In this document: one piece after another, positions 3,149 through 53,607 of the stretch
Layout of the letters: each line of letters opens with the position of its first letter
How positions within the stretch are numbered: the stretch's first letter is position 1
IMG/VR virus record: IMGVR_UViG_3300033068_001142
Coordinates: 48,262-112,261 of that record
From: a virus
Lineage: Duplodnaviria; Heunggongvirae; Uroviricota; Caudoviricetes
Strand: one strand, 5' to 3'
DNA: 64,000 nt
Translations under genes and position numbers: made by a program
Notes under the pieces: generated by a model
Databases searched by the model: none
Told to the model about the DNA's origin: nothing
The model's input: only the letters and a program-made list of their open reading frames with translations

Positions 3149-3430
3149 TTACTCCTGTATGTAGTTTTGTAGCTCGTTCCATAAGGCGAAGGTTGCACAT
3201 GCGTCAATCGCTGCGTAGTGTAGGACGTGCTCTTCGTACATTTGAGATTGGTTGAAGTCGTCAGCAGAAACTGCCCAAGCTCCGTACTTGTAGCCCATTA
3301 GGTGTTTAAGACCTACTAGTGATTTTTGGTTATCTACATCGTTTAGTATGGTTTTAGCTAAGATCTGAGAATCTTCGAAGTCTTTTGGGAACTTTTGAGT
3401 ATGGTAGTAGACATGTTTTAGGTCGAAACT
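3149..3430 (-). CDS. DnaQ-like 3'-5' exonuclease, exon 2
   Basis: Manual translation gives SFDLKHVYYHTQKF...VLHYAAIDACATFALWNELQNYIQE*. This continues the Exo II motif (HNA|SFD) across the splice and contains Exo III (H-x-A-x-x-D-A). It has no ATG, so it is not in the ORF track. Confidence 0.75.
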   Translation of the reverse strand, partial: SFDLKHVYYHTQKFPKDFEDSQILAKTILNDVDNQKSLVGLKHLMGYKYGAWAVSADDFNQSQMYEEHVLHYAAIDACATFALWNELQNYIQE

Positions 3431-4495
3431 CGTTTATATTCAACAGAAGTCGTTAATTTCTGCCGGTTCTCAGTAAGTATTTACATGAACTCCTGCATGT
3501 TTCCATGCAGACTAGACTATATCAACATCTCAAAAAGAGATGGAACCTGTTTCCTTCCACTTGGAAGTACGAGCATTTCAGCTCTAGTCGTTGGACATTT
3601 ACAGCATAATTGCTGATTTAGTAACAGATTGCCCTCGTCTTTACGTTAGGGGTTTCCTGTTTTAAGGTTCTTTAGACATGAAATCGCTTTCATGAATGCC
3701 TATACTTGATAAAAATTTAACAGTTGTTTTATTAGTTGGAAATACTATTTCAGAATCGGATAGTAAGTTATTATTAGAATGTGGCCAATTCATTAATTTT
3801 ACAAAAGAGTCGTAAGCCTTTGCTGCTTCTATTGCTGATTTAAATGATCCTATTCCGTAATGTTTATGCTCGTAATTTATATGAGCTACCCATAGTGTAT
3901 CATGTATTTTAATTATACCTTTATAACCGGTAGTATTAGTTTTTTTGATTGTACGTTGATTTACTATTTGTATAGAATAATTAACCCATCTACAGTTAGA
4001 TGGTTCATAGTTACCGTCGTTATCTTTACGGTCTATAGTAAGTCCCTCTTGATACCCGTTAGAGATAGCCCAATCATAAAAAGCGTCAAATGAGTTTATC
4101 CATTCTTCACACATAGTGATATTTTTACTAAGGTATGATACTGATCTAGAATCTGTACATTTTAACTTAGTTTTAGTATCTGCCCAAATTCTATAAAGTT
4201 TATGGTTTCTGTTTGGTTTTTTATTTGATGTTCCGTTACATCCTTTACAAAATAATTGATTTTGTGATTTAGTTGTAACTACTGCATCAAAGTGGGATAA
4301 ACAGTTTGTACATTCGAATGTTGCCATTCTTACTTTTTTGTAATAATTTTCCGTTGGTTTTTTCATTCCAAGATCTTTTATGACTTTCATTTTGAAAGTG
4401 TATTCTGTTAAAGGTTTTAGTGCTGCCATAATAATGCTCCTTATATGTTTTAATAAGTATAGCATAATTATGCCAAAATGTCAAGTATTTAGTTA
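3431..4495 (-). ncRNA. Group I intron (IA, T4-like core) interrupting the exonuclease gene; carries an HNH endonuclease ORF
   Basis: Exon 1 ends GCU, followed by an in-frame UAA. The 3' part carries Q-like AAAUCAGCAAUU, R GUCCAACGACUAGAG, S UGAUAUAGUCUAGUCUG and AAUUAACGACU 17 nt before the terminal G. Splicing restores the Exo II motif ...VWHNA|SFDLKH. Confidence 0.75.
3662..4465 (-). CDS. Intron-encoded HNH homing endonuclease
   Basis: 267 aa with an HNH_3-type motif ...DRKDNDGNYEPSNCRWVN... It lies entirely inside intron 1 on the same strand. Confidence 0.75.
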   Translation of the reverse strand: MLYLLKHIRSIIMAALKPLTEYTFKMKVIKDLGMKKPTENYYKKVRMATFECTNCLSHFDAVVTTKSQNQLFCKGCNGTSNKKPNRNHKLYRIWADTKTKLKCTDSRSVSYLSKNITMCEEWINSFDAFYDWAISNGYQEGLTIDRKDNDGNYEPSNCRWVNYSIQIVNQRTIKKTNTTGYKGIIKIHDTLWVAHINYEHKHYGIGSFKSAIEAAKAYDSFVKLMNWPHSNNNLLSDSEIVFPTNKTTVKFLSSIGIHESDFMSKEP

Positions 4496-4882
4496 AGCGT
4501 TGTGCCAGACTTGTTTTATTGGTGTTGTAACTAGCCAGTTTAAGGTGATGTCTCGCATACGTGTGTCTGTGAAAATGATTACGTATGCAGTTGTTTCTGA
4601 TGTTGCTATGGAGCAGTGTGTCATCCTAACGAGTGATGGATGTGAAATACCAGAAGATAGAATGGCTTGGTTTGTTTTATGGTAAGCTAATGAGTTGGGT
4701 GGTAGAGCTGCAAGTTTTAGTTTTAGTCGTTCTTTTTCCTCGTCAGTGTACTTGGATGCAGTTTCAAAGTCACAAGCGATTATTGGGTAGGTTTTTGCAA
4801 TGTCTTGTAGCGTTTGAAGGAGTAGTAATTGGTTAGTTATTACAGTGTAAGTTACTGTTGTTGAGGTAGTCAATGTTTCCAA
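4496..4882 (-). CDS. DnaQ-like 3'-5' exonuclease, exon 1
   Basis: Exo I motif IIACDFETAS. The exon ends ...IKQVWHNA, the first half of the Exo II H-N-A-x-F-D motif, and is immediately followed by a stop inside the intron. The start is an apparent TTG with an AAGGA RBS. Confidence 0.75.
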
Positions 4883-5108: not shown

Positions 5109-5389
5109 CATTATGTTCCGTATAAGGCGTTAATTTATACGTGCAGCATTACCTGCAACTATACATTACTGTATAGATCAGACTATATCTTCATCCCAGT
5201 AGGATGCTCCCCGTTTCCACCCACTTGGGTGTACGTGCAAAAGCACTAGTCGTTGAACGTTCCTCGTTATGAGGCTTCGCTGCTGATTGTCCTAGGAGTA
5301 GGATGTCCCAGCAATTAGAGGAGTTTTGATACACATTACTGTGTAAAAGGGCCTATGTAGTTTTATTATGAGTCACTCAACTTAAATTA
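5109..5389 (-). ncRNA. ORF-less group I intron (281 nt) in the helicase gene
   Basis: Exon 1 ends GGU, followed by UAA. Core elements read on the minus strand: P UAAUUGCUGGGACA, Q CAAUCAGCAGCG, R GUUCAACGACUAGUG, S GAAGAUAUAGUCUGA, and AAUUAACGCCU 16 nt before the terminal G. Confidence 0.8.
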
Positions 5390-6625
5390 ACCCTTAGTTG
5401 AGTGAGCTGTTCCTAAATGGAAAGAGCTTGTTAGTCTTTCGTGTTTTTTTGCTTCTTCGTAACAACTAAGTACTCCAGTAACTCTGTATTTTAGAATTAG
5501 ACTGATTGCTGTTGATACTTGCTGGTCTTCTTTATAGAGGTCTTTTAAGTAGTTTAAGTGGTTTCTGTACTTTAAAATTAGTTCTCTATCTTCGTAGTAG
5601 TCGTTGATGTCTTGTTGAATGCTTTTGAATTCAACTGGCATGAAGCCTTTGTTTTTAGAAAGACAAAGTGCTTTCGGTAATGAGAAGATATCATCAGCTG
5701 AACGAGTTAAGGTGTACGGGACTTTTAGTTCGTTTAGTTCCATCATTTTAGAGATTAGTGTTGTGTTTGTTCTTGCAATGAAGGCTTGGGTTTTTGGTTT
5801 GTCTGGTGACTGTTCAGTTCCGTTGAATACCATTTTAGGATCTATGTAAGTTTTACAGTAGCTGTTGACTCTTTCTGCAATTTGAGGTGAAACTCTAAAT
5901 GACTTTGACATTGGGAATTCTACACCAGTTGATTTCATTACGTTGAAGCAGTTAATGGTGTGGTTAAAGCTGTAAATGTTTTGACGAGAATCTCCGACTA
6001 AGAGTTTCTTGGCAGAAGGGATTAGTTTAAAGATTTCTAGTGTTACTGGGTTGATGTCACCAGCTTCGTCAAGAGCAATGAAGTCAAATGGTTGGTAAGA
6101 GATGTGGTCGGTAGCTAAGAGTATATGGAAGTATTTTAGGTAAAATTCGTGAGTACATTCGATGTCACCACTTTCCATTTGATGGATATAGGATTCTAGT
6201 AGTAATAGTTCTTTTTCTGTTATGGGTACTTTTTCTTCTTTGCAGAAGTCTGAGAAATGTAAGTGTTTAGATAGAAAGTACTCTTTTAAGTAGTCTACGA
6301 GTTCACAACGTCTTTCGTATGGAATGTCTTGGTTGATGTTACGGTAATTGAATTTGCCGAGTGTTAAGTGGTTTTTTACTACCGTTGGTCTGTAAGCTAA
6401 TGAATGTACGGTACAGCAAGTTACTGTTTTGGGGAACTTGGATGCAGCTTCGGTTGCAATGCTTTTATTATAAGCTAAGTAAAGAGCGTTAGTAGGGTTA
6501 AGTGCTTTTGCTATTGATACTAAGAGCGCTGTTTTTCCTGCCCCTGCTACGGCATTTACTTTTACGTAGCCATCATTAGATTTTACATGATTTAGTATTT
6601 GGTGTTGTTCGTCTGTTAATTTCAA
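5390..6625 (-). CDS. SF1 (UvrD/Dda-like) DNA helicase, exon 1
   Basis: Walker A AVAGAGKTALL, motif Ia TVHS, motif II ALDEAGD, motif III LLVGDSRQ, motif V TAHSTKG at the extreme end of the ORF. Confidence 0.75.
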
Positions 6626-13883: not shown

Positions 13884-15138
13884 CGTGATATTCACATGCA
13901 GTCGTTAATTGCATGCCGTGAGACACTGCTCACTGCTACATGTTTCCATGCAGACTAGACTATATCTTTACCCGTTTAAAGGTTATTTAAGTTACTATAT
14001 GGTACACTACTAAAAATTTTAACAAGGAATACCGATGGAAATATATAAAGACATAAAAAATTATGAAGGAATATATAAAGTATCGAATTACGGTAATGTA
14101 TATTCTTACTACACTGATAAGATACTGAAACCTATCAAATTTAAAACTAACGTAACTACTTATTTAAGAGTAGATTTAGTAAAAAATAAGAAAAAGTGTA
14201 AGCACTCAATACATAAGCTAGTAGCAGAAGCGTTTATAGAAAATATTGATAATAAACCATGCGTTAATCATATTGACAATGATGCTAGTAATAACCGTGT
14301 TGATAACCTTGAATGGTGTACACATAGTGAAAATTTACTACATGCCCAAAAACAAGGGAGGTTATATGAAGCTCAAAGTAAAGGTGGAATAACTACTACA
14401 AATAAACTAAAGAAATTAGCTGTAGAAGATGCTCACTTGATGGTAGATAAGGTTTATGGCACATGGAAAGTATTAGTTCATACAGGAACTAAAACGGTAT
14501 CAAAAATTCTTGAACGTCATACATTTAATTGTAAGTGTGTAAATTGTGGTAGTGAAAAAGAACTAACTAGGGATTACCTTAAAACTGAACCTAAACAATG
14601 TAGAAATTGTGATGCAATTAAGAAATCACATAACAGATATTTAGAAGCAGTTAAAGAATTAGTTAGTAGTAAATTAAATAATTGGACAATTTTAGAAATT
14701 ACTAAACCAACAACTACTATTAGAAGTAGTAAGTTACTAGTTAAGTGTGAATGCGGTCATAATGACGAAATTCCATATGGCAGCATTAGCAAAAAACAAT
14801 TTAAAAAATGTCCTAACTGTAAATTAGGGTAGCTCCTATTTCCCTCCACTTGGAGGTACGTCTTTCGACTAGTCGTTGAACCTTTAACCTGAAAATAGGT
14901 TACTTGGCTGCTGATTGCCCAATCTAATCAATTTTTAACATTCAAGCTCACTCTTACGAGTCACTTTGTAGTTTGATTAGCTCTAAGGGGTTTCCAGCAA
15001 TTAAAGAGCTTCATATTACACATTACTGTGTAAATGGGCTAGTAATATACATTGCTCTTAAATCTAGTAAATAATACTATATCATTTGTCTATTTTCATC
15101 TAATAGTATTTAGTAGATAGCACAAGAATATTACGTTA
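13884..15138 (-). ncRNA. Group I intron in the replication-protein gene, carrying an antisense HNH endonuclease ORF
   Basis: Exon 1 ends GGU, followed by UAA. Core elements: P UUAAUUGCUGGAAACCCC, Q GGCAAUCAGCAGCC, R GGUUCAACGACUAGUCGAAAG 5' of the ORF, S AAGAUAUAGUCUAGUCUG 3' of the ORF, and AAUUAACGACU near the 3' end. Confidence 0.7.
14035..14832 (+). CDS. HNH homing endonuclease (NUMOD4 + HNH_3 type) encoded antisense inside intron 3
   Basis: 265 aa: YKVSNYGNVYSY (NUMOD4-like), VNHIDNDASNNRVDNLEWCTHSEN (HNH), C-terminal CxxC pairs. It is the only plus-strand gene in the 0-44 kb block. Confidence 0.75.
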   Translation: MEIYKDIKNYEGIYKVSNYGNVYSYYTDKILKPIKFKTNVTTYLRVDLVKNKKKCKHSIHKLVAEAFIENIDNKPCVNHIDNDASNNRVDNLEWCTHSENLLHAQKQGRLYEAQSKGGITTTNKLKKLAVEDAHLMVDKVYGTWKVLVHTGTKTVSKILERHTFNCKCVNCGSEKELTRDYLKTEPKQCRNCDAIKKSHNRYLEAVKELVSSKLNNWTILEITKPTTTIRSSKLLVKCECGHNDEIPYGSISKKQFKKCPNCKLG

Positions 15139-15633
15139 ACCTGCGTATAGGAGCCCAGCACCTATAGGGTGTTCTGCGATGTCATTAATATGTTGGATTA
15201 GTCCTGGGCCAGTAGTTGGTGACATGAAGATTGGGGCTGGTTCTTTGTAGAATGGTTTTGGGTCTGTTTCTCCAGCTTCTTGCATTTTCTTACGAGCTTC
15301 TGCTTTAGCTAGGGTAGTGATTCGCTCTTTAATGTCATTGTAGCCTAGTGAGAAACATTTACGAGCTGCACGAACTGAGGAGTCTTTGTGGTCACCAGAG
15401 CCTGTTACTACGAATGAGATTGAGTTAATTGGTACTGGTGTACCATCCCAGTGGTTGATGTTTCTACGGAATTGTGAGGCAAATGTCATTAACTCAGAAA
15501 CAGCTATAGTTAGTTTCATTCGTTCTGGGACGGTTGCAAAAGGGATTGTGTCTGCGATTTTTGAGATGATTGGTGATTGCTCTTTTGAGAATGCACCTTT
15601 GTCTTCAAGGTATTGTTTAGTTAGTTCTAACAA
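15139..15633 (-). CDS. Putative DNA replication protein, exon 1
   Basis: 165-aa ORF ending ...GAGLLYAG immediately before the UAA that opens the intron, the same exon-U|UAA junction as the other three introns. Confidence 0.5.
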
Positions 15634-20990: not shown

Positions 20991-22308
20991 CTGGTATGTA
21001 TATGCACATTGTTACTTAGGTATTTTTCCGTTAAGTACGTCCTCAATAAAAAGCTCTGTCGATTCTTTAGTTGAAGTTCTTAATTCTTTATAGTCTAAAA
21101 GAATGCTTTGTTCTAATAGGTATGCATTATAAAGTGTAGTTTCAAAAGTATCAATTATGCTAATGTCACATTTGAACTTAGACTTTAATGCATTTATGCG
21201 TTGTTTTAAATTTATAGTTATTCCAATTTTGAAGTATTGCCCTATTTGTAAATAATATAGGATAGCGGGTTTGTTTTTAAGATCATCACTTCTACTAAAT
21301 ATTGTCTCACAATACCCACCTGGTAGTTTGCCTTCTAGACATAGTGCATCTATTGTACATTTAGGACAACCTTGTCCAGCTATGTGTTTTTGGGCTGATT
21401 TTTTAAATTCTCCATGCACTTCACAGTAACAAGTAATGATTGACTTTTTGTTTATGTAATTACTACATTCGTAAGTATACTTACCGTTATATAAGTTTGT
21501 GGCATAATCAATAAATTCCTTAAACGTATGTGTTTTGATATTGGCTGATGATGCTATACCACATTTAGGACAACCTTTTGTCACATTTTTGCTTAATAGT
21601 GTATGCGGAGATGTTGAGTGTTCCCCATGTACTGGACATACTAAAGTTACTTTAGAATTTATACCAGTATAGTTATCTACTTTGAACTCAAAATTAGAAA
21701 ATTTATGTAAAAGTTTACTTTCTATTTCTTCCCATGTGTATTTTAATGGTTTAAATCCTGTCCGTCCTTTAGATTTTTGAGATCTCCTTAAAATTGCACA
21801 CTCCGGACATCCGTATATAGATGTTAAGTGTTTATCGGGGTTTTGTTCAAATTCACCATGGGTAGGACAAGTAATTATTGATTTTGTTTTAGCATTAGTG
21901 TATATAAACTTACTATAATCATACTTGCCATTATACTTTTTATTTGCTTTTTCTATAAATTTTTCTTTGTTTGTCATATTGTATCTCCTATCACTTATTG
22001 ATAAGTATACAATCTTTGTACTTAATAAATACTTAAGTAACAATGTGGACTATATCATCACCCTATAAAATAGGGGCTCACTGCTTCGACCCTGACAGGG
22101 GCCTACTCTCTTTCGAGATAGTCTCTGAACCTTCTCCTATACGGAGCTTGGCTGCGGATTGACCAATATTATAGATTTTTACTGTACTGTAGATAGTTAC
22201 TCTACACCCTATGCTATATTTCTATGTATAGTTAGTACTATAATATTAACGGAAGTTCCCGCAATTCAATGAGTTTTCGATATGGATTACTCCATAAAGG
22301 GGCCATTA
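20991..22308 (-). ncRNA. Group I intron in the NAMPT gene, carrying a Zn-ribbon/T5orf172 (GIY-YIG superfamily) endonuclease-like ORF
   Basis: Exon 1 ends UUU, followed by UAAUGG. Core elements: P CAUUGAAUUGCGGGAAC, Q GGUCAAUCCGCAGCC, R AGGUUCAGAGACUAUCUCGAAAG, S GAUGAUAUAGUCC, all 5' of the ORF. The NAMPT ORF stops in the middle of the conserved GSGG region. Confidence 0.7.
21012..22043 (-). CDS. Intron-encoded endonuclease-like protein: 3x Zn-ribbon repeats + C-terminal T5orf172 domain
   Basis: Three repeats of CPxHGE(F/H)x(13-16)GCPxC. The C-terminus ...ILYYLQIGQYFKIGITINLKQRINALKS matches the T5orf172/GIY-YIG-like motif. The probable true start is the internal ATG (MTNKEKF), preceded by AGGAGA. 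Confidence 0.6.
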   Translation of the reverse strand: MLLKYLLSTKIVYLSISDRRYNMTNKEKFIEKANKKYNGKYDYSKFIYTNAKTKSIITCPTHGEFEQNPDKHLTSIYGCPECAILRRSQKSKGRTGFKPLKYTWEEIESKLLHKFSNFEFKVDNYTGINSKVTLVCPVHGEHSTSPHTLLSKNVTKGCPKCGIASSANIKTHTFKEFIDYATNLYNGKYTYECSNYINKKSIITCYCEVHGEFKKSAQKHIAGQGCPKCTIDALCLEGKLPGGYCETIFSRSDDLKNKPAILYYLQIGQYFKIGITINLKQRINALKSKFKCDISIIDTFETTLYNAYLLEQSILLDYKELRTSTKESTELFIEDVLNGKIPK

Positions 22309-23727
22309 AAATGTTAACCCAATGCCTAATACTATGTTATCAGAAGCAAACTTTTTGTCTGCTAATTTTTTAAGGATAGTGTCTTGTCTTTCTAATGTGA
22401 TTGAGTCTCCGTAGATTAAGCCTACGTATGGTGATAAAGTTTTGTAACCTTTATCGTTTGTAGTGCCTCCAAATACGTCCCAAAGACACTTGATTGCCCC
22501 TTTAATTTGAGCTTCTGAAAGTAACTCAAAAGTATCCTCATTAATAACTTTGAAGCAGCCTTCTTTACAAGAGATGTAGAAGCTGCCCATATAAGTATGT
22601 TCTGCTGCTTCCTCTAATGTTAAAGTTGGAAACGATTGGTTTATTTTAACGCCGCAAATAACATCTACTGGATTACCTGAGTCAGGTCTAAAGACTACTT
22701 TAGCTAATCCTAGAGCATTTGGTTGACGAGATTCAATGATTGGTTTAAGTACTTTTATACCATATTCCATCATATACCAGAAGTCGAATGAGTCAGCAAC
22801 TATTGAGATAATTCCAGTTGGGTATAACTCTGTTATTAAGTACCAAATGTAAGCAATTTCTGCTAGTCTTTGAGTGTTTATGTGTGTACTGTCATATTGA
22901 AGCATGTCAATTGATAGGATTTTGTTAGCAGGAGTTACCCATTTACCAGTAATATCTAGTGATTGTTGAATGTTAGCAATGTTAGTACACATTACACTAT
23001 GTTCAGTTGCTGGAACAGATGTTCCTACTAATGACTTAGTGTAATCAGCAAAATAGTAGTCTTTTGCTCCTTGGATTGCTAAACAGGTGTCAGTTCCTAC
23101 AAAAGAGAATAGGTGTGATATTTGGTTTTTGTAGGCATCTTCCCTGTTTGATAGTCCTCTAGCAGAGAAATCATGTCCTTGAAATATTACAAATCCTTTG
23201 TCTGCACCAGTTAATTCTGCGTAGTGTTCAAAAGTTTTTCGGTATTCGTAAGCTATAGTAGCGTTTGTTGACATTTTCCATAACTCTGATGACATTACAG
23301 TTTCGATGTAGTTAACTAACCAACTAAATTTTGGGTGCGTATTTACTATAGTTAGTACTGGTATCTTAGCTGGAACTAGTGTGCCTTCTGGTAAAGATTT
23401 GATTTGTAATGGTAGGTATCCTAAGTCATGTAGTTCTTCTACGTGGTCAACTGGTATTGAATCTGGTCCAAGTGTTGAATCCATGAATAGTTTATACGAT
23501 TCTACTACTTCTTTTTTAGGTTTGTTAAAGAATCCTTCATTCCATTCTTTAATTAAGTAGTCCATGATGAAGGCTTGTAACCCTACCCATACAAGCTTAT
23601 CTGATGAGCCTTTATATCTTTTGAAAGATCTTGGTGTAAAGTTAGAGTAGACTAATGTAGTGTTTTGAGGGTACTGTCTTCTATGGTCAGCTTTATAGAA
23701 GTCTATAGCTAATAGTGGGTTAAGCAT
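22309..23727 (-). CDS. nadV: Nicotinamide phosphoribosyltransferase (NAMPT/NadV), exon 1
   Basis: MLNPLLAIDFYKADHRRQYP... is the characteristic NAMPT N-terminus. The ORF ends ...NIVLGIGLTF, truncated at the conserved GSGG block. Confidence 0.75.
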
Positions 23728-24109: not shown

Positions 24110-24933
24110 AGTACTACCAATTCATTACAAGTATGGACTTGAGGTACTGAATTAGTAGTAATAAATTTGCTGATACCTGCTTCTTTCAGTTTGTTAAAGC
24201 CAGAGTTAAAGAAGCCATGAGTTACGTATAAGTGGATGTTACAAGAAGGTTCGATAGCTTTGATAGTTTTAGCAAGTTCCTCAAAAGTACGTCCATTTTG
24301 ACATATATCGTCTATGATTAAGACTGTTTTGTCTTTAAGTTGATCTGCTGTAGCAAAGACTTGAGTATCAAGAATTTTACCATTACTAACGTCTCTGATT
24401 TTGTCAGCTCTAATCATGGGTATATTGAATTGTTGAGAACAAGCAAATACTTTCTTGTTAGCACCGGCATCTGGAGAAACGAAGTAATCGTACTCTCTTA
24501 ACTTGATAGTATATTGTGCATCTAAAAGCAGTTGGTGAACTGGGACATTATAGCAGTTGTTTATCAATGCTGTCGATACATCACTGTGGTTATCGAAAGT
24601 TGTAACTTTAATGAAATTACAAGAGTTGATTAGGCTAGTGAATACTTTCAAACTAAATGATTCACCTTGGCTGCATCTACGGTCTTGGCGAGAATAAGCA
24701 CAGTATGGCATGACTAAGTTGATGCTAGAAGTGTTCCAATGGTGGTTGATAGCTTCAACTAAAAGTAGAAGTTCCATTACGTGATCTGAGCTAAGAATTG
24801 AGCCAGTGATAGTTACAGGGTAAACTCTAGCTGCATGTGGAGCTGTATCTAAAGTTACTTGAATCTCACCTGACGGGAATTGCATAACTGAGTATGAGCT
24901 TGATGATAGTTTAAAATTTGGTGTTAATTTCAT
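24106..24933 (-). CDS. prs: Ribose-phosphate pyrophosphokinase (PRPP synthetase)
   Basis: ...VMPYCAYSRQDRR (PYxxYxRQDR), VSPDAGANKKV, TVLIIDDICQNGRT (PRPP-binding loop). Confidence 0.65.
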   Translation of the reverse strand: MKLTPNFKLSSSSYSVMQFPSGEIQVTLDTAPHAARVYPVTITGSILSSDHVMELLLLVEAINHHWNTSSINLVMPYCAYSRQDRRCSQGESFSLKVFTSLINSCNFIKVTTFDNHSDVSTALINNCYNVPVHQLLLDAQYTIKLREYDYFVSPDAGANKKVFACSQQFNIPMIRADKIRDVSNGKILDTQVFATADQLKDKTVLIIDDICQNGRTFEELAKTIKAIEPSCNIHLYVTHGFFNSGFNKLKEAGISKFITTNSVPQVHTCNELVVL

Positions 24934-44576: not shown

Positions 44577-44826
44577 TCCTTTATTTAATGTTAGTAGCTA
44601 CCGTGTGTTCCGCTGAGGTGACTGGTAGCGTCAATAGTTTAGAGTCGTTGCGGACTAGAAATAAGGTAGCTTCATTGAAGACTACCGGGGGGTAGATGGT
44701 TCAAGTTGGTTCTCCATCCCCTATACTGCCCCGCTACTAAATATAACAAAACCAATACAATTCTTAAGCTAGTATTAAGGGTACTAGTAGTATACTAGTA
44801 GTATAATATTATAAGGAGTGTAGTAC

Positions 44827-48078: not shown

Positions 48079-48690
48079 ATGACTGGAAGACAAATAATAG
48101 ATTTAGCTAAGACTAGTCAGTTAGAACAGCTAGGTAAAAAGAATGATGATGCTGCTATCCTAGGTTACCTAAATTTAGGAATGGTAGAGTTGTACAAAAG
48201 GTTTCCTCTTAAAGTTGAAGAGTATTTGATTGAGTTAGTTGATGGGCAAACTGTATATACGTTGCCAAGTGACTGTATGTATTTAACAGCAGCGTATGGA
48301 GAAGTTGAGGAAAATTCAGAAAGGTTTGTAGCTGTGCTACCGATTAATGAAGAAGATGACCCGTTAAGTATTAATACGATTAGTTGGAATAAGATTCAGA
48401 TACCAGTGTCAGTTAGTGGGGCTTACATAAGTTTGATTTATGTAGCTAATCCGACATGGATAGATTTAGCAGATATTGGTGAGGAAGTTGAATTACCCTT
48501 GCAGTTAGTTGAAGCTATGTTATGTTACATTGGGTATATGGCTACGGCGGCATTAGGTGCAGAAGAGCCAGAGAATAATATCCACTATCAACGATTTGAG
48601 GCAAGCTGTAAGAGGGCAGAAGTGTTAGGTGTTACAACTAGAAATGATGTAGCAATGACAGAAAGAGTTAAAACAAGAGGGTTTGTGTAA
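48079..48690 (+). CDS. Hypothetical virion-associated protein
   Basis: 203-aa ORF between the terminase and the tail fibres. Confidence 0.3.
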   Translation: MTGRQIIDLAKTSQLEQLGKKNDDAAILGYLNLGMVELYKRFPLKVEEYLIELVDGQTVYTLPSDCMYLTAAYGEVEENSERFVAVLPINEEDDPLSINTISWNKIQIPVSVSGAYISLIYVANPTWIDLADIGEEVELPLQLVEAMLCYIGYMATAALGAEEPENNIHYQRFEASCKRAEVLGVTTRNDVAMTERVKTRGFV

Positions 48691-53554: not shown

Positions 53555-53607
53555 GATGGTTAAAAATTTGGTATAATATCAATAAAAGGAATTTAAAATG
53601 AAATTTA

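Follow-up and report, generated by a model that had tools for sequence, protein, structure and literature searches.

When a selfish element made of two parts is to be illustrated, the usual choice is a group I intron with its homing-endonuclease gene. In phages, such endonuclease genes have so far been described as co-directional with the intron that carries them. How could such a gene be expressed and kept if it ran against both its ribozyme and its host gene? The question is raised by a stretch of 64,000 nucleotides (nt) from a virus of the Caudoviricetes (IMG/VR record IMGVR_UViG_3300033068_001142, positions 48,262 to 112,261), hereafter called the window, in which an earlier note made from the sequence alone had read a primase-like replication gene as split by an intron with its HNH endonuclease gene on the antisense strand. 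The explanation that accounts best for the whole, and in which we have good though not full confidence, is that of a two-part composite mobile element, with the antisense endonuclease gene placed in the P8 loop of a group I intron. Its parts, and the host gene on either side, are the following:

15139..15633, minus strand: exon 1 of the helicase-primase gene, amino acids (aa) 1-165, with a TTG start; ends in GCA GGT, the last U of which pairs with a G in P1
13884..15138, minus strand: group I intron, IA-like (P7.1/P7.2 present), 1,255 nt; starts with UAA and ends in CACG (terminal G)
14035..14832, plus strand: homing-endonuclease gene, 265 aa, NUMOD4 and HNH_3 domains, Cys-rich C-terminal half; antisense to the intron, in the P8 loop
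12114..13883, minus strand: exon 2, aa 166-754 and stop; begins GAA CTT GGA

The interrupted gene and its ribozyme

The two flanking open reading frames (ORFs) are exons of one protein, as the earlier note had supposed for a product of about 755 aa. Joining them at 15139|13883 is in frame and gives 754 aa, and a search of 5.8 billion proteins with the joined sequence returned more than 480 homologues, of which the best 120 are nearly all uninterrupted, with lengths of 744-786 aa and alignments that take in 97-100% of the query. All of the best homologues aligned (40/40) cross the junction, LLYAG|ELGDEL, without a gap, and exon 1 starts where uninterrupted homologues have their N-terminus (for instance P0003, 89% identical to the joined exons). 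Two homologues are 99-100% identical over 95% of the joined query, and one of them comes from a strain represented by a 90.8-kb contig (L001), which is about 96% identical to the window over alignable stretches (22 kb fetched). In L001 the gene is single and continuous: its sequence runs from window position 15140 directly to that past 13883, exactly 1,255 nt are absent, and the intron-less junction of this type of allele reads ...TACGCAGGAGAGCTGGGAGAC.... Together with the canonical rules for group I introns (exon-final U at 15139, intron-final G at 13884), this intron-less allele fixes the boundaries exactly, at the very positions first proposed.

Gene callers annotate the three ORFs separately, and a GTG at 13895 can open the exon 2 frame, as would be expected if no intron existed and a free-standing endonuclease gene lay between independent genes of 165 aa and 589 aa. 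That GTG, given as the start of exon 2 by the ORF finder, is inside helix P9.2 and is not a real start; moreover, in uninterrupted homologues the junction corresponds to the interior of a conserved motif, a complete and covarying group I core flanks the endonuclease ORF, and the gene is continuous in L001. The flanking ORFs are thus not independent genes in homologous phages, and an arrangement without an intron is so improbable that it hardly needs to be entertained.

The host protein was identified as a member of the phage N4 gp43 family, probably an MCM-like AAA+ helicase fused to an AEP primase. PHROG 2135, annotated as DNA primase and representing this family, gives a full-length profile match (E 1.7e-101, residues 17-751 of P0003), and among deposited phages all the best matches of the host protein belong to N4-like phages. 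In Pfam, a minority of family members have weak DUF3987 and PriCT_1 matches; sequence searches of PDB and NCBIfam with the host protein gave no matches. A P-loop, GSGxGKDS, at residues 78-85 would place the ATPase module at the N-terminus, and the invariant residues D554, D556, H574 and H575, taken with the PriCT_1 matches, would place the primase domain in the C-terminal half. Homing elements usually sit in highly conserved functional motifs. The intron site falls between codons G165 and E166, at the end of a beta-strand (160-164), E166 is invariant, and the junction is at the position expected for the Walker B acidic residue, by our inference. The intron likewise sits in a highly conserved functional motif, to be placed in the helicase module rather than in the primase domain.

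That the sequence between the exons is a group I intron was seen both from family models and from covariation. The search used Rfam RF00028, for which the gathering score is 50 bits, and permissive filters were needed to bring up this intron. RF00028 then gives two partial matches on the minus strand, one at 15058-14732 (43.4 bits, E 2.6e-9) and one at 13970-13938 (25.2 bits, E 7e-4), the second corresponding to J8/7-P7'-P9, and the plus-strand ORF falls between the two. The scores remain below threshold because the model cannot bridge the insertion of about 860 nt; at the gathering threshold, Rfam finds two other introns in the window and misses this one. The elements that the earlier note had called P, Q and R are P4, P4' and P7, and its S element is J8/7-P7' (13966-13958), so that the minus-strand intron, with a NUMOD4/HNH_3 gene on the opposite strand between these two groups of elements, is as it had described. 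The conserved parts of the ribozyme are the following:

15036..15041, minus strand: internal guide sequence UAGCCC, which forms P1 together with exon/intron AGGU|UA (15142-15137); the pair at the splice site is U.G
15069..15110, minus strand: P1a hairpin in the P1 loop, 10/10 stem pairs of which covary
14826..15032, minus strand: 5' half of the ribozyme core, with P2, P3, P4, P5, P6, P6a, P7 (5' strand), P7.1, P7.2, P3' and P8 (5' strand)
14999-14994, 14914-14909 and 14874-14870, minus strand: P4, P4' and P7, respectively
13894..13974, minus strand: 3' half of the ribozyme core, with P8 (3' strand, 13974-13969), J8/7 and P7' (GAUAUAGUC, 13966-13958), P9, P9.1 and P9.2

Covariation was assessed on an alignment (A2) of 11 distinct intron cores from relatives, with the ORFs removed. 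RNAalifold found compensatory double changes in 51/73 predicted pairs. An explicit structure comprising P1, P1a, P2 to P6a, the P7 pseudoknot, P7.2, P8, P9, P9.1 and P9.2 has standard pairs in 96.3% of cells, against 30-40% when the partners are slid by 1-3 columns; both sides have changed in 53/77 pairs, and the observed measures were reached by 0/500 shuffles. P7 and most of P4 are invariant across the 11 introns, as expected for a catalytic core. The IA-type P7.1/P7.2 extension is present: all five pairs of P7.2 (14856-14852 / 14847-14843) covary, and P7.1, located by eye (GUCGAAAGAC), is outside the covariation score owing to alignment gaps.

The splice sites are equally well kept. The U.G pair of P1 at the 5' splice site is found in 11/11 introns, two G-C pairs of P1 in 10-11/11, and the two intron-side pairs vary with compensatory changes. 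Over a set of 15 introns, the 5' exon ends in GGT and the intron in ACG, followed by GAA, in 15/15, and the first intron triplet (15136-15138 in the window) is an in-frame stop, UAA or UGA, in 14/15, so that ribosomes translating exon 1 would terminate at the 5' splice site. The 21-nt loop of P1a, GAUGAAAAUAGACAAAUGAUA / GAUGAAAAUAnACAAAUGAUA (15100-15080), is nearly invariant in 10/11 introns, the hairpin being missing in one (L002); a tertiary contact or a protein-binding site are possible roles for this loop.

The endonuclease gene, its leader and its presumed mobility

Apart from the endonuclease gene, every plus-strand ORF of 100 aa or more in the first 44.6 kb of the window is shadowed by a longer minus-strand ORF, which agrees with the earlier statement that the gene runs opposite to the other genes of this block. 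Its product passes the Pfam thresholds for both domains (NUMOD4, 35.8 bits with a cutoff of 23.4; HNH_3, 34.3 bits with a cutoff of 24.8), and matches I-HmuI of Bacillus phage SPO1 (PDB 1U3E) with an E value of 4.5e-25, a match limited to the N-terminal 107 residues. The ORF closes with a TAG (14830-14832) that overlaps the point where P3' meets the P8 5' strand. Among 20 endonuclease sequences of 36-97% identity, H79, D81, N82, N91 and H103 never vary, and four Cys pairs vary little or not at all. Pairwise ratios of nonsynonymous to synonymous substitutions (dN/dS) are 0.11-0.39, with dS up to saturation, as expected of a gene under purifying selection.

These data bear on the idea that the plus-strand ORF could be an unexpressed relic, left facing the wrong way by a chance inversion and by now silent or in decay. 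This idea would fit with scans that gave neither a consensus promoter nor a terminator, but it is hard to reconcile with an ORF that is intact and full-length in relatives, with its constrained evolution and invariant catalytic and Cys residues, with a conserved Shine-Dalgarno (SD) sequence and -10-like element, and with the presence of the lineage across many metagenomes. A relic therefore appears very improbable, and degeneration in relatives, which the earlier note had named, together with the lack of a plus-strand transcript, as speaking against its reading, was not what was found.

Since all neighbouring genes run the opposite way, none of them could supply a plus-strand transcript, and the gene would need a plus-strand promoter of its own, as the earlier note had argued. 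Candidate signals are found in the leader:

14000..14008, plus strand: putative promoter TGGTACACT, a -10-like TACACT, extended by TGn, that precedes the ATG by 26 nt
14024..14028, plus strand: SD sequence AAGGA, 6 nt before the endonuclease ATG

In relatives, the SD sequence is kept at the same position as AAGGA, AGGAG or AAGGAGGA, and 10/10 leaders of related introns, in both orientations, have TAnnnT 26-32 nt before the ATG together with an SD sequence. The leaders of three introns (L169, L170 and L172) have a perfect TATAAT, and a second, sense endonuclease gene of L169 has the same type of leader, with a -10-like element and an SD sequence. The leader is kept whichever way the gene faces, and the gene thus looks like a unit that is self-contained in its expression. 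N4 late genes are transcribed by the host sigma-70 polymerase. Similar TGGTATAAT elements precede plus-strand late-block genes of the window (TTTGGTATAAT at 53566-53576 and GTATAAT near 44800, both on the plus strand), which makes the late timing considered in the earlier note plausible, without statistical support within the window; by analogy with N4, late expression of the endonuclease by the host polymerase is suggested. A further box of the leaders, TTAAGT, was considered as a -35 element and rejected, as its spacing of 10-22 nt to the -10-like hexamer is unsuitable, and no -35 element is claimed; enrichment of TTAAGT in the window is uninformative, being biased by codon usage of the antisense strand.

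Mobility of the element is suggested by the comparison of the window with L001. The intron and the endonuclease gene are present together in the former and absent together from the latter, a presence/absence polymorphism between strains. At the junction, L001 reads GGA GAG CTG and the spliced window GGT|GAA CTT, with three synonymous differences. The exon differences between the two cluster at 0, +3, +6 and +30 to +87: the first 90 nt of exon 2 hold nine differences, against a background of about 2.4%, and the last 160 nt of exon 1 hold none except that at position 0, the final base at the junction. Small as these numbers are, the cluster looks like a one-sided co-conversion tract, and with the presence/absence polymorphism it is an indirect sign of homing.

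In the composite-element explanation, the ribozyme would excise itself from the middle-gene transcript and join GGU|GAA, thereby restoring codons G165-E166. The endonuclease gene would most likely be transcribed alone by the host sigma-70 RNA polymerase, as late genes of the plus strand would be, and its mRNA, antisense to the intron, would then be translated. When infections are mixed, primase alleles without the intron would be nicked or cut by the enzyme close to the site of insertion, and repair from intron-carrying genomes would copy in the intron along with some flanking exon sequence. Being self-contained, the cassette would work in either orientation.

Several observations weigh against this explanation. 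On the side of the ribozyme, no single RF00028 match to the intron reaches 50 bits (best 43.4), P1 of the window is short (three exon and two intron pairs) with an A.C mismatch at -4, and inspection for P10 gave no convincing pairing. On the side of expression, a scan with the sigma-70 consensus found no site before the ORF (nine sites in the region, versus 6.4 +/- 2.3 expected), the pattern TGnTA[TC]A[AC]T is not enriched in the window (11 observed versus 9.4 expected), the window hexamer TACACT shares only four of its six letters with TATAAT, conservation of the TTAAGT box may be due to constraints on pairing or coding and not to a promoter, and a scan after the ORF found no terminator-like site. 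As to mobility, the junction-proximal differences from L001 are only nine and could be ordinary polymorphism, and the target of the endonuclease might be the P8 loop of the intron instead of the exon junction. Finally, splicing in vivo, promoter use and plus-strand transcription are all deduced from sequence rather than from RNA.

Both orientations at one insertion site

Homologous introns, gathered from relatives, are all at the same codon junction. The antisense layout is found in eight sequence-distinct introns, on 13 contigs including the window and from a dozen independent samples (the window, L002-4, L005/6, L007-9, L015, L169, L170 and L172), and every close relative of the endonuclease with a readable context has it, with exon ORFs of about 165-178 aa and 565-592 aa on the opposite strand. 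Three introns (L016, L093 and L171) have related endonuclease genes in sense, the antisense form thus being the majority in this family, with 8/11 distinct introns. In N4-like phages that are more distant, among them the cultured Vibrio cholerae phage VCO139, similar introns have a shorter endonuclease relative, of about 200 aa, encoded in sense between their P7 and J8/7. A scan of JGI metagenomes gave few further close relatives.

A neighbour-joining tree of the endonucleases (300 bootstraps) groups the main antisense clade at 92%, with protein identities of 51-97%, and pairs L015 (antisense) with L171 (sense) at 74%, and monophyly of all antisense genes was recovered in 0/300 bootstraps. With no bootstrap support for a single antisense clade, the tree indicates that orientation has changed at least twice.

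Could the orientation then have a function in itself? The endonuclease mRNA, or convergent transcription started at its promoter, might regulate the primase pre-mRNA in antisense, by RNase III cleavage or by blocking ribozyme folding, and thus shut down helicase-primase synthesis late, while middle transcription through the gene would silence the endonuclease early; the placement would in that case be selected and not neutral. The antisense majority and the wide diversification of the main antisense clade over many samples would be in line with this, some 800 nt of the intron would find their full complement in the endonuclease mRNA, and antisense interference has also been discussed for nuclear antisense endonuclease genes (PMC9548176). 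However, genes in sense have been kept at this site too, with a leader of the same type, which argues that orientation is not required for function, and the antisense majority could reflect the success of one lineage or sampling. A functional orientation is therefore considered unlikely.

The constant location in P8 raises a different possibility, that of an endonuclease that is an independent invader of the intron P8 loop, for which the intron is a safe harbour whose own mobility is independent of the enzyme. Whichever way they face, related endonuclease genes do indeed always occupy P8 loops of related introns, free-standing endonuclease genes have a high turnover in these genomes, and one intron of the family has a second, unrelated endonuclease gene in its P5 region. 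Yet no ORF-less intron was found at the same site among close relatives, the intron and the endonuclease gene are either both present or both absent when the window and L001 are compared, and the exon differences cluster at the junction, as expected for exon cleavage; in addition, homologous repair into the loop would keep orientation and leave the two orientations unexplained. Taken together, these points make an invader of the P8 loop distinctly unlikely. Regarding ORF-less forms, 59 short-P8 introns were found in IMG/VR, none of them at the same site in a close relative, and the only one near exon 2 (L197) is in a homologue of 23% identity.

The intron with two endonuclease genes is that of L169 (2836-4793, 1,958 nt), where a sense HNH/homing endonuclease of 206 aa is encoded in the P5 region (3960-4580) and an antisense gene of 270 aa in P8, the two being unrelated. 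In another case, a 1.5-kb contig (L089), the endonuclease gene is downstream of the exon 2 start, which may mark a second insertion site.

How, within the composite-element explanation, could the gene have come to face both ways? Inverted repeats were found around the endonuclease cassette in L015 (2925-2948 / 3785-3808, 24 nt, 96% complementarity) and in L093 (1289-1306 / 2134-2151, 18 nt, 89% complementarity); as the two strands of a longer P8 stem, these repeats might serve as a substrate for inversion of the loop. This leads to a reading in which the P8 loop is an invertible cassette that has flipped repeatedly. The strands of P8 would act as inverted repeats at the DNA level, and recombination or template switching would flip the promoter and endonuclease as a module, leaving the ribozyme undamaged and keeping even those C-terminal codons that extend into the stem. 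Uncoupling of the endonuclease from host-gene transcription would favour the antisense state, which might also add antisense control of helicase-primase splicing late in infection. This joint reading is put forward tentatively and is more doubtful than probable. Long flanking inverted repeats were seen in L015 and L093 only, and P8 of the window has just 5-6 pairs. An extended P8 stem was also considered for the window and rejected, mini-construct folding being no better than that of shuffles (z = 0.83). Independent insertion in either direction is a possible alternative route to both orientations.

Genome setting, known systems and significance

The window has a G+C content of 35.6% and two blocks of genes, one of minus-strand genes from 1 to about 44.6 kb and one of plus-strand genes from about 45.1 kb on. 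N4-like podoviruses of Alteromonas, Vibrio, Enterobacter and Pseudomonas provide its best protein matches among deposited phages, and a near-identity DNA search of deposited phages gave no match to it; the phage is known from metagenomes only. The main differences between the window and L001 are mobile endonuclease elements. Two further group I introns of the window are absent from L001. The first (5109-5389, minus strand; Rfam 98.3 bits at 5159-5398) is 281 nt long and ORF-less, and interrupts a UvrD-like helicase gene (exon ORF 5387-6625). The second (3429-4495, minus strand; Rfam 78.0 bits at 3493-3721) lies in a gene with a DNA polymerase A exonuclease domain and bears a sense HNH endonuclease ORF (3662-4465, phrog_374) located 5' of the core, so that a single genome holds both sense and antisense intron endonuclease genes. 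Also missing from L001 is an insertion at 21005-22316 (ORF 21012-22043, minus strand), which encodes a DUF723 and T5orf172/MUG113 protein, likely a free-standing homing endonuclease; similar DUF723 genes are near the primase in L004 and L005. Conversely, L001 has at 1923-2480 (about window 24151-24258) a free-standing NUMOD4/HNH_3 gene without counterpart in the window.

Among phage introns, that of the SPO1 DNA polymerase gene, with its endonuclease I-HmuI, shares with the intron described here its location in a replication gene and a homologous N-terminal DNA-binding and HNH core. I-HmuI is a nicking enzyme giving one-sided co-conversion, and nicking of the I-HmuI type would, by analogy, fit the one-sided exon tract at the window junction. 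Nevertheless, the I-HmuI gene is in sense, differs in the C-terminal half of its product (Cys-rich in the window) and resides in a different host gene. The td, nrdB and sunY introns of T4 (with I-TevI, -II and -III) are likewise IA-type phage introns of nucleotide-metabolism or replication genes, with a stop codon shortly past the 5' splice site. Their endonuclease genes have regulatory elements of their own within the intron, and expression of these genes comes late and is not coupled to that of the host gene (PMC2988022); unlike in the window, all of them are in sense, and uncoupling is achieved by RNA structure and late promoters, not by strand.

Closer relatives are found in N4-like Vibrio phages, which have in common with the window the Schitoviridae family and the same host gene family. 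In the Vibrio cholerae phages JA-1 and VCO139, the gp43 (primase) homologue is split with an HNH gene, and the authors of that work proposed that the HNH genes splitting homologues of N4 gp24, DNA polymerase and gp43 may be intron-borne (PMC3670811); a td intron has also been described in the N4-like Vibrio phage pVa5 (PMC5746245). The HNH gene of VCO139 is 43% identical over 197 residues and sits between group I core motifs, directly upstream of the gene annotated as DNA primase; in contrast to that of the window, endonuclease genes of this type are about 200 aa long and in sense. RefSeq lists in VCO139 (L232, NC_049350.1 30402-33614) gp57 (81 aa, hypothetical), gp56 (HNH endonuclease) and gp55 (DNA primase) separately; the group I core motifs on either side of gp56 make it probable that gp57 is exon 1, gp56 the sense endonuclease gene of an intron, and gp55 exon 2.

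The best-matching cases of antisense genes are eukaryotic. A nuclear ribosomal DNA (rDNA) group I intron of Didymium iridis, Dir.S956-2, has an antisense His-Cys endonuclease gene (I-DirII; PMC3073962), and the L2066 family, to which Dsq.L2066 (I-DsqI) of D. squamulosum belongs, has sense and antisense genes at one site (PMC9548176). Like them, the window intron has its endonuclease gene on the strand opposite the ribozyme and the host gene, with expression proposed from an internal promoter, both orientations at one insertion site and the same question of antisense interference. In contrast, the I-DirII and I-DsqI introns are group IE introns of rRNA genes with His-Cys box enzymes in P9, whose genes are transcribed by Pol II, polyadenylated and interrupted by spliceosomal introns, whereas that of the window is an IA-like intron in a protein-coding phage gene, with an HNH enzyme inserted in P8 and bacterial signals (a -10-like element and an SD sequence). 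It is therefore an analogue, and not a member, of this type.

In 50,697 deposited phage records, neither an antisense form nor a full-length relative of the endonuclease was found. The published literature yielded no phage or bacterial antisense intron endonuclease, absence from the literature and libraries searched not being proof, and the words antisense, opposite and orientation are absent from a 2014 review of bacterial group I introns (PMC3984707). The earlier note had called antisense endonuclease genes within group I introns rare. This is apt for phage and bacterial introns, where we found none reported, but not for nuclear rDNA introns, where they are documented, nor for the present family, where they prevail. 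To that note the present analysis adds the exact anatomy of the element, exon continuity through L001, covariation, the identity of the host protein, and both orientations with a portable leader.

For annotation, the consequence is that the Rfam gathering threshold misses the intron and gene callers give three unrelated genes, so that the essential helicase-primase of N4-like marine phages is systematically mis-annotated, appearing as "hypothetical protein" entries of 165 aa and 590 aa. For the biology of these elements, one intron family with related endonuclease genes both ways at one site is a natural experiment: the two orientations indicate that the endonuclease module brings its own expression signals, independent of the host-gene transcript. 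The family thereby offers a tractable bacterial system for a question raised by slime-mould rDNA introns, namely how an antisense endonuclease is expressed without interfering with the host RNA.

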